Shown here: piece by piece, positions 6,201 to 21,692 of the stretch
How the letters are laid out: each line of letters opens with the position of its first letter
Numbering within the stretch: the first letter of the stretch is position 1
From: a virus
Direction: 5' to 3' (one strand)
Length of the DNA stretch: 30,697 bases
Virus genome (UHGV): UHGV-1292713
The notes under the pieces: generated by a model
The model's input: only the letters and a program-made list of their open reading frames with translations
The model's database searches: none
What the model was told of the DNA's origin: nothing
Translations under genes and position numbers: made by a program

Positions 6201-6523
6201 ACTTTCAGGCCCCTCTCATGTAACCAGTGGGCTGCACGCAGCCTGGCGTTTTCCTCACCGGCAAGCAGTGCGCGGATAATCCCGACCGCCTCGCTGTCGT
6301 CGTCCTTCACCGCGGTATGAAGAGTTATCCCCCGGGCCACGCCACGCTTTATCGTGATGACGCTTTTTTTCTCCAGTGCGCGAAGATGCTCCACCGCTGC
6401 ATTCACCGAACGGTATCCCAGCATGGTTGCCACCTCCTGATTGGTTGGCGGAAAGCCACGTTCTTGCTGGTAAGAAATCAGCATATCCAGCACCTGCTGC
6501 TGGCATTGAGTTAACGTCGTCAT
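6197..6523 (-). CDS. LexA-N-terminal-like winged-helix DNA-binding protein
   Basis: 108-aa ORF; TQCQQQVLDML...GFPPTNQEVATMLGYRSVNAAVEHLRALEKK resembles the LexA DNA-binding domain; no S24 peptidase domain. ATGA-type overlap with the neighbouring gene. Confidence 0.5.
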   Translation of the reverse strand: MTTLTQCQQQVLDMLISYQQERGFPPTNQEVATMLGYRSVNAAVEHLRALEKKSVITIKRGVARGITLHTAVKDDDSEAVGIIRALLAGEENARLRAAHWLHERGLKV

Positions 6524-7173
6524 GCCGCCATCTCCCTGACCAGTTTTTCCGCCTGCTGGCGAACCTGCGCCAGAAAGGCCTCACCACATGCCTCAAGTTC
6601 ATCGCGCCCGATGTAGCTGATTGCCGGTCCCTTCCAGGTCTTGTCGAAAACAGCAATAGCACCAGCGAAGAAAGCGCCTGTCGGCACCTGCTTCTCGTCC
6701 TTCGGGATAAACCAGGCTGGCAGTTCAAAACCAATACGCCCGCGAATAAAAGCAATATGGTCTGCATCTTCCGGCCACCACACTTCGCTGGTGGCAGCTT
6801 TGATCAGGAAAACATAGCGCCCGCCTTTATCACGCATGGCACTGGCATGCTTCATGATGTAACGCATGCCGGTGATGTATTGCCCCTCATGCTGACTGGC
6901 GCGGCTGTACGGGGGATTACCAAAGGCAGCACCTTTAAGCTCCGCAAGACGTTCTGACCAGTCATGCGCCAGCGCGTTGTCTTCCGCAGTGTAATACGCG
7001 GCGCATTTGGCGTTATCACCATCAGTAAACAGATCCAGAACAAACGGGCCAAACAGGGTGTTAATTCCCCAGAAAATGTTGTCCGGCGTGCGCCACTGAT
7101 CGCCCACTTCCTTCAGTTCATGGGCTGGTTTGTTCCGCAGCTCCACCAGCGCCTGGCAATATTTATTACTCAT
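6520..7173 (-). CDS. Phage N6-adenine DNA methyltransferase (Dam-like, NPPY motif)
   Basis: ORF-track frame 6520..7206; start assigned to the ATG at 7173 (MSNKYCQ...), which overlaps the upstream stop. Motif FGNPPYS. 217 aa. Confidence 0.75.
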   Translation of the reverse strand: MSNKYCQALVELRNKPAHELKEVGDQWRTPDNIFWGINTLFGPFVLDLFTDGDNAKCAAYYTAEDNALAHDWSERLAELKGAAFGNPPYSRASQHEGQYITGMRYIMKHASAMRDKGGRYVFLIKAATSEVWWPEDADHIAFIRGRIGFELPAWFIPKDEKQVPTGAFFAGAIAVFDKTWKGPAISYIGRDELEACGEAFLAQVRQQAEKLVREMAA

Positions 7174-7661
7174 TAAGCCCCCACGTAATTCCCTGACAGA
7201 TACCACTCTTCACCCGATGCAGCGCGCTTGCTGCTTTTCCGTAAACACCGCTCACGACGCGCAAGAAAATTGTTTCGCTCTTGCTGGGAGTGGCTTTCAC
7301 GGAATGCCGCCATCCACACCGTTGCAGCACGACGGTATAAGCCCCTGGACTCCAGTTCTTCCGCCTGGCGGGTCAGGCACAAAATCACCCGGGGATCGTT
7401 AGTGCCGACATAGAAATTGCGCACAGGTCTGGATTCACGAACTGGTTGCGGTTCCGGCTCCTGCGGTATCTCAGTCAGCCGCGGGAAATGTCTGCGTGTA
7501 TCCCCTTCACAACGGTGAGCCACACGCCCACTCTGACGTAACTTGCTTGCTGACTGCAGAACGCGCTGTCGTGAGTAACCTGCAAAAGCATCCGCAATGT
7601 CTCCGGAAGTACACCCCGGATGGGCTTCAATGAATTTCTGAACGTCATTCAAAAGACTCAT
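7173..7661 (-). CDS. PerC-like transcriptional regulator family protein
   Basis: ORF-track frame 7173..7667; C-terminal region AEELESRGLYRRAATVWMAAFRESH matches the PerC/Pch signature as I recall it. ATG at 7661 chosen; a GTG at 7667 is also possible. Confidence 0.45.
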   Translation of the reverse strand: MSLLNDVQKFIEAHPGCTSGDIADAFAGYSRQRVLQSASKLRQSGRVAHRCEGDTRRHFPRLTEIPQEPEPQPVRESRPVRNFYVGTNDPRVILCLTRQAEELESRGLYRRAATVWMAAFRESHSQQERNNFLARRERCLRKSSKRAASGEEWYLSGNYVGA

Positions 7662-7663
7662 GA

Positions 7664-8605
7664 TCACCCCCTGAATCCTGCCGGGATCTGGCTGTAGTCC
7701 ACGTTGTCGTAACTGGCTTTGAAGTACGGGTCTTCGCGTTTTTCGGTGTACGTGCTGACGGACGGCGATAAGCGCAGGGAAAGCTCATCCCATTTTTCCC
7801 GCAGCTTCGACGGGCTGAGCACGTTACGGCACCAGAACGGATCGCGACTGACGCGGCTGTACATCTCGCAGATTTGTTTATGAGTACGACCATCCTGCAC
7901 ACACATCAGGCGAATTTCGTTTGCCCAGGCTGTCCAGTTCGGTTCTTTGGGACGAACCACCTCGCCGTCACATTCGGCGGCATGCTCGTACAGGGCGATG
8001 ATTTTTTTCCAGAGCCACTGTGCGCAGGTCAAATCATCCTGCGTCCCCCACTGGCGCTTTTTAGGGCTGAATACAACCGCATCAGGATGGCGAGTTAAAA
8101 AATCCTGTTCAGCCGTCTGCGTGTCCGGTTGCGAAGAGTCCGGACGAGAAGGTTTTTTATCTGACGGATCATGTTTTGATTTTACTGACGGATCCCCGCC
8201 AGATTCTGACGGGTGAAAACCCGCTTTTTTGCCAGATTTCGACGCATCAAATTTTGACGGGTCAGATTTTGATGCGTCAGATTTTGACGGGTCAGAATCT
8301 GACAGTTGAGAAAATGCCGCTGCCTGAAGCTTCGCAACGTTAAGCTGATAAACATTCGACGCATTGCGGTTACCCTGGCGACGCGCCTTACGCGTTAACC
8401 AGCCTTCTGCTTCCAGCCGTGCGATAGCCGTTCTGACGGTACTCATCCCCGCGCCAATCTGGCGGGCAATGGTTTCAATCGATGGCCAGCACACACCTTC
8501 GTCATTACTGAAATCAGCCAGGCGGGCCATAATTGCCACGCTGGATAATTTCATGCCTGACGCTGCGCAACCATCCCATACATAGCCGGTTAATTTAGTG
8601 CTCAT
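7664..8605 (-). CDS. Replication initiator (O-like), N-terminal helix-turn-helix, with iterons inside the gene
   Basis: 313-aa ORF; N-terminal wHTH; central low-complexity repeats (DPSKSDASKSDPSKFDASKSG) encoded by tandem ~15-bp DNA repeats; positioned after the cro/cII-like genes as in lambdoid replication modules. Confidence 0.55.
   Translation of the reverse strand: MSTKLTGYVWDGCAASGMKLSSVAIMARLADFSNDEGVCWPSIETIARQIGAGMSTVRTAIARLEAEGWLTRKARRQGNRNASNVYQLNVAKLQAAAFSQLSDSDPSKSDASKSDPSKFDASKSGKKAGFHPSESGGDPSVKSKHDPSDKKPSRPDSSQPDTQTAEQDFLTRHPDAVVFSPKKRQWGTQDDLTCAQWLWKKIIALYEHAAECDGEVVRPKEPNWTAWANEIRLMCVQDGRTHKQICEMYSRVSRDPFWCRNVLSPSKLREKWDELSLRLSPSVSTYTEKREDPYFKASYDNVDYSQIPAGFRG
8160..8306. 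repeat. Putative origin iterons (about 8 head-to-tail copies of a ~15-bp unit, consensus AGATTTTGACGGGTC)
   Basis: Direct repeats ctgacggatc, agattctgacgggtg, cagatttcgacgcatc, aaattttgacgggtc, agattttgatgcgtc, agattttgacgggtc, agaatctgacag read directly in the sequence, inside the initiator gene as for lambda ori within O. Confidence 0.6.
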
Positions 8606-8614
8606 GACCGACCT

Positions 8615-8953
8615 CTATTTCCCTGAATTTACGACGAAACTGTTCGAGCGGACTGAAGCACTCATGCTCATAGCCTTCGCGGAGGTAGATAACCCGTTGT
8701 GTTTCCGGTTCCCAACGAATGACTCTGACGGGCACTCCGTAGTGATCTTTGAACCAGCGGTTAACTTGTCGCAAAGGACTGTCTCCTTCTGCCGGTTGAA
8801 ATCCCCCACAGCCCACTCTGCAAAGCTGTGGGTTACAATTTCCCTGTCACCTGGTACATTCACTGCATAGCAATATTCCACCTTCGCTTTTCCACCCGGT
8901 ACAGGAAGCGCAATCAGTTGCGAGCGACGGTAGTGTGTTGTTAAACTGTTCAT
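8615..8953 (-). CDS. Hypothetical protein, possibly frameshifted (C-terminus may continue in the overlapping frame ending 8595)
   Basis: ATG at 8953 overlaps the TGA of the upstream gene (ATGA coupling). The N-terminal half looks protein-like and the tail degenerate, whereas overlapping ORF 8595..8816 has a protein-like C-terminus; a ccccc run near 8806-8810 lies in the overlap. Confidence 0.35.
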
Positions 8954-14291: not shown

Positions 14292-14662
14292 TGGAGCCAT
14301 ACAGCCTCACACTCGATGAGGCCTGTCATTTTCTCAAAATATCCAGACCGACTGCCATTAACTGGATACGCACAGGCCGCCTACAGGCAACACGTAAAGA
14401 TCCAACCAAGCAAAAATCTCCTTACCTCACAACACGGCAAGCTTGCATTGCGGCGCTTCAGTCTCCGCTGCATACTGTCCAGGTGAGCGCGGGTGATGGC
14501 ATAACAGAGGAAAGAAAATGTCACTCTTCCGCAGAAATGAAATATGGTATGCCTCGTATTCGCTCCCGGGCGGGAAACGAATTAAGGAATCTCTTGGCAC
14601 AAAGGACAAGCGGCAAGCTCAGGAGTTGCACGACAAGCGAAAAGCAGAACTCTGGCGAGTAG
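14291..14662 (+). CDS. Excisionase-like (AlpA/Xis family HTH); 3' extent uncertain
   Basis: Start at ATG 14291 ([31 protein letters not shown]...), overlapping the upstream stop. The frame stays open to 14662, overlapping the integrase start at 14518; the functional product may be shorter. Confidence 0.45.
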
Positions 14663-15681
14663 AAAAGCTAGGGGATTTACCTGATGTCACTTTTGAAGAG
14701 GCCTGCCTAAGATGGCTTGAGGAAAAAGCTGATAAAAAATCTCTCGATTCAGATAAAAGCCGGATTGAGTTCTGGCTTGAACATTTTGAGGGTATAAGGC
14801 TTAAAGATATCTCGGAGGCAAAGATTTACTCTGCTGTAAGCAGAATGCATAACAGAAAGACGAAAGAAATATGGAAACAGAAAGTTCAGGCCGCCATCAG
14901 GAAAGGTAAAGAACCGCCTGTTTATGAACCAAAGCCAGTATCAACTCAGACAAAGGCAAAGCATCTTGCCATGATAAAGGCCATTCTCCGTGCTGCAGAA
15001 CGCGACTGGAAGTGGCTGGAAAAAGCGCCTGTCATCAAGATACCAGCGGTCAGAAACAAGCGAGTCAGATGGCTGGAAAAGGAGGAAGCAAAACGCCTTA
15101 TTGATGAGTGCCCCGAACCACTGAAATCTGTCGTCAAGTTTGCGCTGGCAACTGGTCTGAGAAAGTCGAACATCATAAATCTGGAATGGCAACAAATCGA
15201 CATGCAGCGACGAGTTGCCTGGGTGAATCCAGAAGAGAGCAAATCAAACCGCGCCATTGGTGTGGCGCTGAACGATACCGCCTGTAAAGTGTTGCGTGAT
15301 CAAATAGGCAAGCATCACAAATGGGTGTTTGTACATACCAAGGCGGCTAAGCGAGCAGATGGAACATCAACGCCTGCGGTCAGGAAGATGCGCATCGACA
15401 GCAAGACATCATGGCTATCAGCTTGTCGTCGTGCAGGAATTGAAGATTTCCGTTTCCATGACCTCAGACACACCTGGGCAAGCTGGCTGATCCAGTCAGG
15501 CGTCCCATTATCTGTGCTTCAGGAAATGGGCGGATGGGAGTCCATAGAAATGGTTCGTAGGTATGCTCACCTTGCGCCTAATCATTTGACAGAGCATGCA
15601 AGGAAAATAGACGACATTTTTGGTGATAATGTCCCAAATATGTCCCACTGTGGAATTATGGAGGATATAAAGAAGGCGTAA
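14518..15681 (+). CDS. int: Tyrosine site-specific integrase (DLP12 IntD-like, tRNA-Arg-targeting)
   Basis: 387-aa ORF with the C-terminal catalytic signature ([10 protein letters not shown]...VRRYAHL); immediately followed by a tRNA-Arg 3' fragment. Confidence 0.9.
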
Positions 15682-16163: not shown

Positions 16164-17117
16164 ATGCGGGCGAAACTTCTGGGAATAGTTCTGACAACCC
16201 CTATTGCGATCAGCTCTTTTGCTTCTACCGAGACTATATCGTTTACTCCTGACAACATCAATGCGGACATTAGTCTTGGAACTCTGAGCGGAAAAACAAA
16301 AGAGCGCGTTTATCTAGCTGAAGAAGGAGGCCGAAAAGTCAGTCAACTCGACTGGAAATTCAATAACGCTGCAATTATTAAAGGTGCAATTAATTGGGAT
16401 TTGATGCCCCAGATATCTATTGGGGCTGCGGGCTGGACTACTCTCGGCAGCCGAGGTGGCAATATGGTCGATCAGGACTGGATGGATTCCAGTAACCCCG
16501 GAACCTGGACAGATGAAAGTAGGCACCCTGATACACAACTCAATTATGCCAACGAATTTGATCTGAATATCAAAGGCTGGCTCCTCAACGAACCCAATTA
16601 CCGCCTGGGACTCATGGCCGGATATCAGGAAAGCCGTTATAGCTTTACAGCCAGAGGTGGTTCCTATATCTACAGTTCTGAGGAGGGATTCAGAGATGAT
16701 ATCGGCTCCTTCCCGAATGGAGAAAGAGCAATCGGCTACAAACAACGTTTTAAAATGCCCTACATTGGCTTGACTGGAAGTTATCGTTATGAAGATTTTG
16801 AGCTAGGTGGCACATTTAAATACAGCGGCTGGGTGGAAGCATCTGATAACGATGAGCACTATGACCCAGGAAAAAGAATCACTTATCGCAGTAAAGTCAA
16901 AGACCAAAATTACTATTCTGTTGCAGTCAATGCAGGTTATTACGTAACACCTAACGCAAAGGTTTATGTTGAAGGCGCATGGAATCGGGTTACGAATAAA
17001 AAAGGTAATACTTCACTTTATGATCACAATGATAACACTTCAGACTACAGCAAAAATGGTGCAGGCATAGAAAACTATAACTTCATCACTACTGCTGGTC
17101 TTAAGTACACCTTTTAA
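16164..17117 (+). CDS. ompT: Outer membrane protease OmpT (omptin family)
   Basis: 317-aa ORF with signal peptide; sequence matches my recollection of E. coli OmpT essentially throughout. Confidence 0.9.
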   Translation: MRAKLLGIVLTTPIAISSFASTETISFTPDNINADISLGTLSGKTKERVYLAEEGGRKVSQLDWKFNNAAIIKGAINWDLMPQISIGAAGWTTLGSRGGNMVDQDWMDSSNPGTWTDESRHPDTQLNYANEFDLNIKGWLLNEPNYRLGLMAGYQESRYSFTARGGSYIYSSEEGFRDDIGSFPNGERAIGYKQRFKMPYIGLTGSYRYEDFELGGTFKYSGWVEASDNDEHYDPGKRITYRSKVKDQNYYSVAVNAGYYVTPNAKVYVEGAWNRVTNKKGNTSLYDHNDNTSDYSKNGAGIENYNFITTAGLKYTF

Positions 17118-21101: not shown

Positions 21102-21692
21102 ATGTCTCGAATTTATGCTTACTGTCGGGTATCAACTCTGGAACAAACAACCAAAAATCAACGTCGGGAAATCGAAAGTGCAGGTTTTAACATCAAATCT
21201 CAGCAAATAATTGAAGAACAAATTAGCGGCTCAGCAGCAACCAGTGAGCGTCCTGGTTTTAACCAGTTGCTTGATCGACTGAAAAGAGGTGATGCATTGA
21301 TTGTCACAAAACTGGATCGCCTCGGTTGTAATCCAATGGATATCAGTAAAACGGTGGAACAACTGACCAAAGCAGGTATCAAAGTGCATTGCTTAGCATT
21401 GGGGGGCGTTGACCTGACCAGTCCACCTGGAAAAATGATGATGCAAGTAATTTCAGCAGTCGCTGAATTTGAGCGAGACCTTTTACTTGAGCGTACTCAT
21501 TCAGGGATATTAAGAGCACGGGGCGCAGGAAAGCGATTTGGTCGCCCACCTGTGTTAAATGATGAACAAATACAGAGGGTACTAGAGCAAATTAAGTCAG
21601 GTATAAATATAAGTGACATTGCCCAAGAATTCAAAACCTCGCGGCAAACCATTTTAAGAGCTAAAGCAAAAAATCAGACACCTGATATATAA
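21102..21692 (+). CDS. Serine recombinase (resolvase/invertase family, Pin/Gin/Hin-like)
   Basis: 196-aa ORF; N-terminal catalytic region YCRVSTLEQ, resolvase core and C-terminal HTH; located beside the tail fibre / tfa genes. Confidence 0.85.

Follow-up and report, generated by a model that had tools for sequence, protein, structure and literature searches.

The virus genome UHGV-1292713, a stretch of 30,697 nucleotides that we call the window, contains a lambdoid prophage with a gene for an O-like replication initiator. The segment between positions 8155 and 8307, which lies inside this gene, is likely to be the replication origin of the prophage. The repeats in the segment are very probably the binding sites of the initiator itself, laid out as they are in phage lambda. 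The design is that of textbook lambda and is already known; this particular family of initiator and iterons is not described in the literature searched.

The repeated elements, as read from the sequence, are of three kinds: five contiguous head-to-tail units of 15 bp, one dyad of 19 bp, and two half-sites that each contain GATC. Together they span 8161-8307, and consecutive CTGAC cores are separated by 24, 20, 33, 15, 15, 15, and 15 bp. A sequence-only reading of this DNA had described eight head-to-tail repeats of about 15 bp. It counted the eight elements correctly, but only five of them are head-to-tail and three are spaced out. The position that it gave for the array within the O-like gene is correct, as is its translation of the repeat block, SDSDPSKSDASKSDPSKFDASKSG. 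Absent from that account was the internal dyad symmetry of every unit (GTCA-RAATC-TGAC on the coding strand); each 15-bp unit is centred on the imperfect dyad GTCARAATCTGAC. Tandem Repeats Finder reports a period of 15 at 8233-8296, with 4.3 copies and an 81% match. When the whole window was scanned with the 15-mer CAGATTTTGACGGGT, allowing up to three mismatches, six matches were found and every one of them fell inside 8200-8301. The number expected for the whole window is 0.9, and none of 100 shuffled sequences gave six. The repeats are therefore non-random and far above chance. In the spacer that separates the tandem units from the dyad, the TTTT adjoining the dyad is at least 90% conserved in homologues. 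One of three terminator-like matches, at 8210-8223 on the non-coding strand, proved to be merely GGGTGAAAACCCG followed by the TTTTTT of this spacer and was dropped.

The initiator matches PHROG 391 ('replication initiation O-like') over its full length with an E-value of 4e-135. Pfam places an HTH_36 domain at residues 23-70 (E-value 4e-11) and reports GntR and other winged-helix models, but no Phage_rep_O. An AlphaFold2 model built on 33 homologues shows a winged helix, a disordered linker, and a helical C-terminal domain (C-domain), followed by a disordered tail. A Foldseek search of the PDB with this model found only winged helices of the MarR/ArsR type, several of them solved on DNA. Winged helices of this type bind palindromes as dimers. 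The PDB sequence search gave only weak matches to MarR winged helices, with no DnaT or initiator structure among them, and the NCBIfam search gave no useful match. The C-domain has 39% identity to lambda-type O proteins by tblastn. Lambda O itself is matched in this domain alone; the aligned region is residues 161-299 of lambda O, and the identity is 36%. The motifs WG..EDL..AEW, PN..WAN.IRLM..DGR.H, and FW..NVLSP.KLR.KW are common to both. The PHROG match, the HTH_36 domain, and the 36-39% identity of the C-domain to lambda O uphold the earlier assignment of the protein as an O-like initiator. The repeat elements correspond to nucleotides 298-445 of the gene (codons 100-149), between its two domains. 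It follows from these positions and from the domain boundaries that the repeats encode only the disordered linker between the DNA-binding domain and the lambda-O-type C-domain.

The repeat DNA is under selection in its own right. A scan with the N-terminal domain (N-domain), taking one genome per species, yielded 80 loci from more than 30 enterobacterial genera, and the repeats are present in every full-length homologue examined. Among phages, homologues with an array of 15-bp period at the same place occur in Klebsiella phage 1 LV-2017, Citrobacter phiNP, Yersinia YeP3, and Escherichia coli phiP27. The synonymous sites of the winged-helix domain are saturated: at its invariant residues the commonest codon is used just 54% of the time in 70 homologues, with 4-6 codons per column. 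In the same number of homologues, the linker block F-D/H-P-S/P-E-S-G-G-D-P-S-V-x-S is encoded by TTT, GAC, TCA, GAA, TCT, GAT, CCG, TCA, GTA, and TCA codons that are 94-100% invariant. The codons of the 19-bp dyad are 84-100% invariant in these sequences, with the exception of one Gly wobble base, and the stretch of about 60 bp at 8161-8220 is mostly conserved at 90% or more among homologues.

Codon choice follows the DNA elements. The Asp codon of the first half-site, which creates GATC, is GAT in 77 of 77 homologues, while outside the linker GAT and GAC are used 620 and 494 times. In the tandem units the Asp codons are GAC in 270 cases and GAT in 110. At least two GATC sites lie within 60 nucleotides of each other in 68 of 76 homologues. 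Ser is encoded by TCA or TCT in 83% of cases in the linker compared to 36% elsewhere, and Lys by AAA in 96% compared to 67%. In a matrix of 406 tandem units the third-codon positions are conserved (0.67-0.87), and the middle codon undergoes non-synonymous change (P, A, T, or G), a pattern that is the reverse of protein-level constraint. Two homologues, phiP27 and L077, keep TTTGACCCTTCAGAATCTGG in a shifted frame, where it is read as V-L-T-L-Q-N-L. The density of the core motif falls from 18 per kb in the linker to 0.06 per kb elsewhere in these genes. Synonymous-site conservation in about 75 homologues, taken with the out-of-frame copies, shows that the repeats are conserved as DNA and not as protein, a point on which the sequence-only reading had made its proposal depend.

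The elements are not conserved to the same extent. The number of tandem units ranges from 2 to 10 across genera, and near-identical alleles differ in it, giving proteins of 303, 313, 318, and 323 amino acids (aa). In deletion alleles of 282-288 aa, nothing but the dyad and the GATC block is left. Based on this copy-number variation and on the deletion alleles, the dyad and the GATC block look like the core of the element and the tandem units like an accessory part. In P0015, P0017, P0029, and P0034 nearly all tandem units have been lost by repeat-to-repeat deletion (282-293 aa), and one Salmonella deletion allele is found on 128 contigs.

The repeats are inherited together with the N-domain. 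At least three unrelated C-termini occur with the same N-domain and repeats. In mEp460_4F5 the C-terminal half is 96% identical in nucleotide sequence up to window position 8163, but the N-domain differs and so do the repeats, whose period is 23 bp; in mEp460 both are of a third kind, with a repeat period of 24 bp. A swap of the N-domain thus replaces the repeats, and a swap of the C-domain keeps them. In the initiators with the most divergent N-domains (52-62% identity) the invariant core CAGAATCTG stays in place and its flanks change symmetrically, from acccgtCAGAATCTGacgggt to acctcCAGAATCTGgaggt (acccgt...acgggt to acctc...gaggt), as in L084 and L086. Among 76 sequences the dyad takes 28 distinct forms, and divergent clades show a symmetric G-to-T / C-to-A change. 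Co-inheritance combined with symmetric change of the flanks is the pattern expected of a dimeric initiator and its iterons, and it suggests that the N-domain binds the repeat sites.

The earlier proposal of a lambda-type layout, in which the origin lies within the initiator gene, gains support from DNA-level conservation, from the linkage to the N-domain, and from the position of the repeats. In lambda, the iterons lie inside O at nucleotides 349-433 (four in the annotated record), compared to 298-445 here. Both systems have several dyad-symmetric sites of about 19 bp with a less stable stretch following in the direction of the gene. In both, origin specificity appears to go with the N-domain, and the C-domains are homologous. 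There are also differences. Five sites have an overlapping 15-bp spacing here, whereas the four sites of lambda are about 20-24 bp apart. The two invariant GATC half-sites are found here, a marked A+T block is not, and the N-domain is HTH_36 rather than Phage_rep_O. No P gene follows the initiator, which ends in a DnaT-like peptide that lambda O does not have. The iteron sequence, CCCGYCAGAATCTGRCGGG, is unrelated to that of lambda, ATCCCTCAAAACGAGGGAT. Related origins of the lambda type are those of phi80 (gene 15), P22 (gene 18), and phage 82.

The same gene with the same repeats, at 98-100% nucleotide identity, is present in the Shigella phages SfII and SfIV, in the E. coli phages PhiR29_1 and Kati, and in a CPS-53/e14-like prophage module, whose genes in RefSeq include yfdN, ymfL, ymfT, and ymfK. 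The module in the window is carried by SfII and SfIV at 98.6-98.9% identity. In the records of these phages and prophages no origin is marked, and the protein is labelled only 'replication protein O', 'primosomal protein', or 'helix-turn-helix domain-containing protein'. An origin is not a topic of the SfIV genome paper (PMC3851460), and the literature searched describes no origin for SfII, SfIV, or SfV, nor iterons for HTH_36 initiators. SfIV was isolated as an inducible phage (PMC3851460). Since SfII and SfIV carry the module and SfIV is inducible, the module works in real phages. A protein that combines an HTH_36 N-domain with a DnaT-type C-terminus, DopC, has already been described (Brezellec et al. 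2017, PMC5509034). At the dopC locus the authors found no iterons (PMC5509034), in contrast to the family studied here, in which iterons are present and conserved.

Dam-dependent GATC repeats are a feature of iteron-type plasmid and P1 origins such as P1 oriR and of the 13-mers of oriC. As in those origins, initiator-binding repeats would here lie beside a short A-rich stretch bracketed by conserved GATC, and the operon often includes a gene for a Dam-type methylase; in about 50 of 85 loci an adenine methyltransferase gene lies downstream of the initiator at a distance of no more than 3 kb. The origin in the window differs in having just two GATC sites, and DnaA boxes were not noticed, although no search was aimed at them. 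By analogy with P1 oriR and oriC, one may speculate that the Dam-type gene and the conserved GATC provide methylation-sensitive control of the origin.

The following mechanism is proposed, in which we infer that the N-domain binds the sites, that the origin fires, where the DNA unwinds, and how the helicase is recruited. Once the initiator has been translated, its N-terminal winged helix, probably as a dimer, would bind dyad-symmetric sites with the core CAGAATCTG and the flanks CCCGY / RCGGG. These sites would be one strong 19-bp dyad, five weaker overlapping units spaced by 15 bp, and two half-sites. Several bound initiators would then form a nucleoprotein complex, like that of lambda O in the O-some, and the complex would strain the adjacent, least stable, A-rich and GATC-flanked stretch at 8155-8184 until it opens. 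The order of elements in the gene direction is five overlapping weak dyads, an A/T tract, the strong dyad, and the two GATC half-sites that bracket the least stable 30-mer. This 30-mer has a nearest-neighbour free energy of -34.2 kcal/mol, which puts it at the 95.5th percentile of the window, and its G+C fraction is 0.43-0.48. The C-terminal half of the initiator would recruit the host replicative helicase, possibly via its DnaT-like C-terminal peptide. Because no phage loader is encoded, we propose that the host DnaB-DnaC is used. In this mechanism the sites are placed in the part of the gene that encodes the disordered linker; since a linker tolerates almost any protein sequence, its DNA may be free to evolve as binding sites.

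Several points weigh against an origin of this kind. The A+T content of the candidate unwinding region is only moderate, whereas the lambda origin has a marked A+T block. At a spacing of 15 bp, adjacent 19-bp sites overlap by 4 bp, so that full simultaneous occupancy by dimers is uncertain. There are natural alleles almost without tandem units (287, 282, and 288 aa); the tandem part may be dispensable or just modulatory, or the prophages with deletion alleles may be defective or crippled in their origin. The palindromic repeats also predict stable mRNA hairpins. Finally, the literature searched contains no replication or DNA-binding experiment on this family and no paper that maps this origin.

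It has to be considered whether the repeats have any function as DNA. They could be slippage-prone, low-complexity coding sequence for a flexible linker of Ser, Asp, and Lys, whose copies are alike through recent duplication or gene conversion. The encoded segment is indeed predicted to be disordered, near-identical alleles step by 5 aa in copy number as slippage would produce, and Tandem Repeats Finder gives just the 4.3 imperfect copies mentioned above. Slippage does not account for codon identity that is kept in more than 30 genera next to a domain with saturated synonymous sites, for unit positions whose most variable members are non-synonymous, or for a motif that survives a change of frame in two homologues. 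The best-conserved part, moreover, is the single-copy dyad with the GATC half-sites, which is beyond the reach of homogenisation by slippage. A recent horizontal sweep would need flanking synonymous sites that are equally identical, and they are not. This explanation is largely refuted and we regard it as extremely improbable. If the sequence is under selection, it might still act in the initiator mRNA, as hairpins that control translation or stability, rather than as an origin. For the mRNA strand of 8140-8315 the folding energy is -53.8 kcal/mol (z = -5.6 relative to shuffles), a T/C change at dyad position 5 preserves a G-U or G-C pair, and the pair 4-16 is found as G-C, T-A, and C-G. The same pair is unpaired in 16 of the 28 distinct sequences, however, and the pair 1-19 in 9 of 28 (two of the nine dyad pairs). 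Direct-repeat half-sites and invariant GATC play no role in a hairpin, and a low folding energy arises from any palindromic array of protein-binding sites. Different N-domains bring entirely different repeats at the same place, which fits protein-DNA specificity and not a shared mRNA device. A role as RNA is thus very unlikely.

The remaining alternative accepts that proteins bind these sites but not for the firing of an origin. The sites could serve autoregulation or a roadblock in the early-right operon, or be bound by DUF4222, CII-like, or PerC-like proteins. In favour of this are the DUF4222 gene, which is often adjacent (66 of about 85 loci), the fact that most winged-helix proteins of this fold regulate transcription, and the lack of a strong A+T-rich unwinding element. 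The neighbours do not match the distribution of the repeats, which are in every full-length homologue: genes for PerC-like and LexA-domain proteins are found in 18 loci each, and DUF4222 is not universal. In both annotation and architecture the family is one of replication initiators: the C-terminus is of the lambda-O or DnaT type, and a gene for DnaC, DnaB, or lambda P sometimes comes directly after the initiator gene. Iterons commonly double as origin and autoregulatory sites, and this alternative largely overlaps the explanation that we prefer; as an account that leaves out the origin, it is unlikely.

The sequence-only reading had seen no helicase-loader gene downstream, and broader searches agree. 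Searches of the window by tblastn with E. coli DnaC, with DnaC and DnaB of phiP27, and with lambda P found no match anywhere, and Pfam scans of the other large open reading frames (ORFs) of the window found no loader family. By Pfam these ORFs encode methylases, Q, DUF968/HNH, KilA-N, RusA, a LexA-type domain, PerC-like, CII, Cro, CI, and integrase proteins, and then unrelated genes follow. A DnaC-like or lambda-P-like loader lies within 3 kb in just 9 of 78 complete homologues and is missing from the other 69, most of which end in the DnaT-like peptide described below. The module of the inducible phage SfIV likewise has no loader. The PerC-like downstream gene was considered as a hidden loader and rejected, since its matches are to transcription-activator families and just 18 of about 85 loci have it.

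The initiator ends in VDYSQIPAGFRG, and its last nine residues, SQIPAGFRG, are identical at eight of nine positions to SQIPPGFRG of E. coli DnaT; in both proteins the peptide (IPxGFRG) is at the extreme C-terminus. The C-domain of some family members is about 30% identical to DnaT aa 101-179. The globular C-domain in the window differs in being of the lambda-O type, and a BLASTP alignment of the initiator with E. coli DnaT is limited to the last nine residues. The initiator thus has neither the oligomerisation domain that DnaT carries at its N-terminus nor its three-helix, ssDNA-binding C-terminal domain. The idea that the lambda-O-type C-domain is a homologue of the DnaT C-terminal domain was dropped, as profile comparisons of three C-domain types with one another and with DnaT detect only the shared tail. 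The tail is common to these three otherwise unrelated types and is also present in L010, L012, L084, and L086. Its occurrence varies with that of loader genes, in a pattern that is a correlation only: 46 of 78 initiators have the terminal tail and no loader gene nearby; five have IPxGF (two terminal, three internal) with a DnaC homologue directly after, which mirrors the dnaT-dnaC operon; and two are followed by a lambda-P gene and lack the motif. It is possible, though on balance doubtful, that ..(V)DYSxIPxGFRG is a portable docking motif for host helicase loading, through DnaB-DnaC or a restart protein such as PriA. How DnaT recruits DnaB-DnaC 'remains unknown' according to a 2026 preprimosome structure paper (PMC13377028). 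Neither that paper nor the DnaT review mentions the extreme C-terminal peptide, and a literature search for the literal tail peptides found nothing specific.

Two further observations concern the end of the gene. Its last 76 bp (7664-7739) are 97-99% identical in many phages with otherwise different initiator genes (SfV, mEp460, cdtI, and Stx2c phages), which marks a sharp mosaic junction at the tail and at the start of the PerC-like gene. In 21 loader-less loci without the GFRG tail (L004, L020, L043, L056, L061, and others) the initiator ends in a conserved extension of about 50 aa, ..(R/K)xxW(N/A)xIWxxxxxQ.., which may be an alternative partner-binding module.

The features of the region are listed in Table 1. 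The DUF4222 gene is located directly upstream of the initiator in the loci that carry it, and RefSeq annotates DUF4222 in that position. Its ORF spans 8595-8816, with the RefSeq start at 8774. It overlaps, in another frame, an ORF of 112 aa on the minus strand (8615-8953) that matches PHROG 1170 (E-value 6e-70; gp40 in SfIV) and whose C-terminal half looks low-complexity. This arrangement may reflect a mis-call, a frameshift, or genuinely overlapping genes. A promoter scan of 7600-8700 found no sigma-70-like promoter. The prophage ends at an integrase gene (14518-15681). Past it are an omptin gene (16164-17117), a hydrolase gene, a methyltransferase gene, and a Pin-type invertase gene (21102-21692), and then, on the minus strand, tail-fibre assembly, tail-fibre, Lom, and J genes, which are the tail end of a second prophage.

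Table 1. Features in and around the putative origin of UHGV-1292713 (window coordinates; pLDDT, predicted local distance difference test score of the AlphaFold2 model)
Feature	Position	Strand	Remark
Replication initiator gene, 313 aa	7664..8605	(-)	O-like
Winged helix, aa 1-98	8312-8605	(-)	pLDDT 70-87
Disordered linker, aa 99-163	8117-8311	(-)	pLDDT 32-44 (residues 102-161)
Lambda-O-type helical C-domain, aa 164-278	7772-8116	(-)	pLDDT 76-92
C-terminal tail REDPYFKASYDNVDYSQIPAGFRG	7667..7738	(-)	resembles C-terminus of E. coli DnaT
Five head-to-tail 15-bp units	8233..8307	.	coding strand TCTGAC-nCn-TCA-RAA
A/T-tract spacer, coding strand GCAAAAAAGCGGGTTTTCA	8214..8232	.	separates tandem units from dyad
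19-bp dyad CCCGCCAGATTCTGACGGG, coding strand CCCGTCAGAATCTGGCGGG	8195..8213	.	best-conserved site
Half-site with Dam site, CTGACGGATC, coding strand GATCCGTCAG	8185..8194	.	invariant GAT codon
Second GATC half-site, CTGACGGATC, coding strand GATCCGTCAG	8161..8170	.	from sequence and homologue conservation
Candidate unwinding region, least stable 30-bp stretch of the gene	8155..8184	.	inferred from nearest-neighbour energy
Small DUF4222 gene	8595..8774	(-)	Pfam DUF4222, E-value 3e-19; overlaps initiator start codon
Phage Dam-type N6-adenine methyltransferase gene	6520..7206	(-)	Pfam Dam, E-value 1e-45; downstream, same operon

Of 5426 complete E. coli genomes, 1576 (29%) have the initiator gene, and the module is also carried by serotype-converting phages of Shigella; its annotation is just 'helix-turn-helix protein' or 'primosomal protein', and no origin is marked. 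Once defined, the origin could be cloned, and marker-frequency analysis of prophage induction would have a concrete target. The gene is an example of dual coding, in which putative DNA-binding sites lie within the codons of a disordered linker, and annotation pipelines could detect such cases through synonymous-site conservation. The naturally covarying pairs of initiator and iterons offer material for studies of winged-helix specificity. A lambda-O-type initiator that works without P would be a natural system bearing on the recruitment of host DnaB-DnaC. If the terminal peptide is indeed a docking motif, the origins of this family would load the host helicase without a phage loader of the P or DnaC type, and the same peptide would be the element by which DnaT recruits DnaB-DnaC in replication restart.

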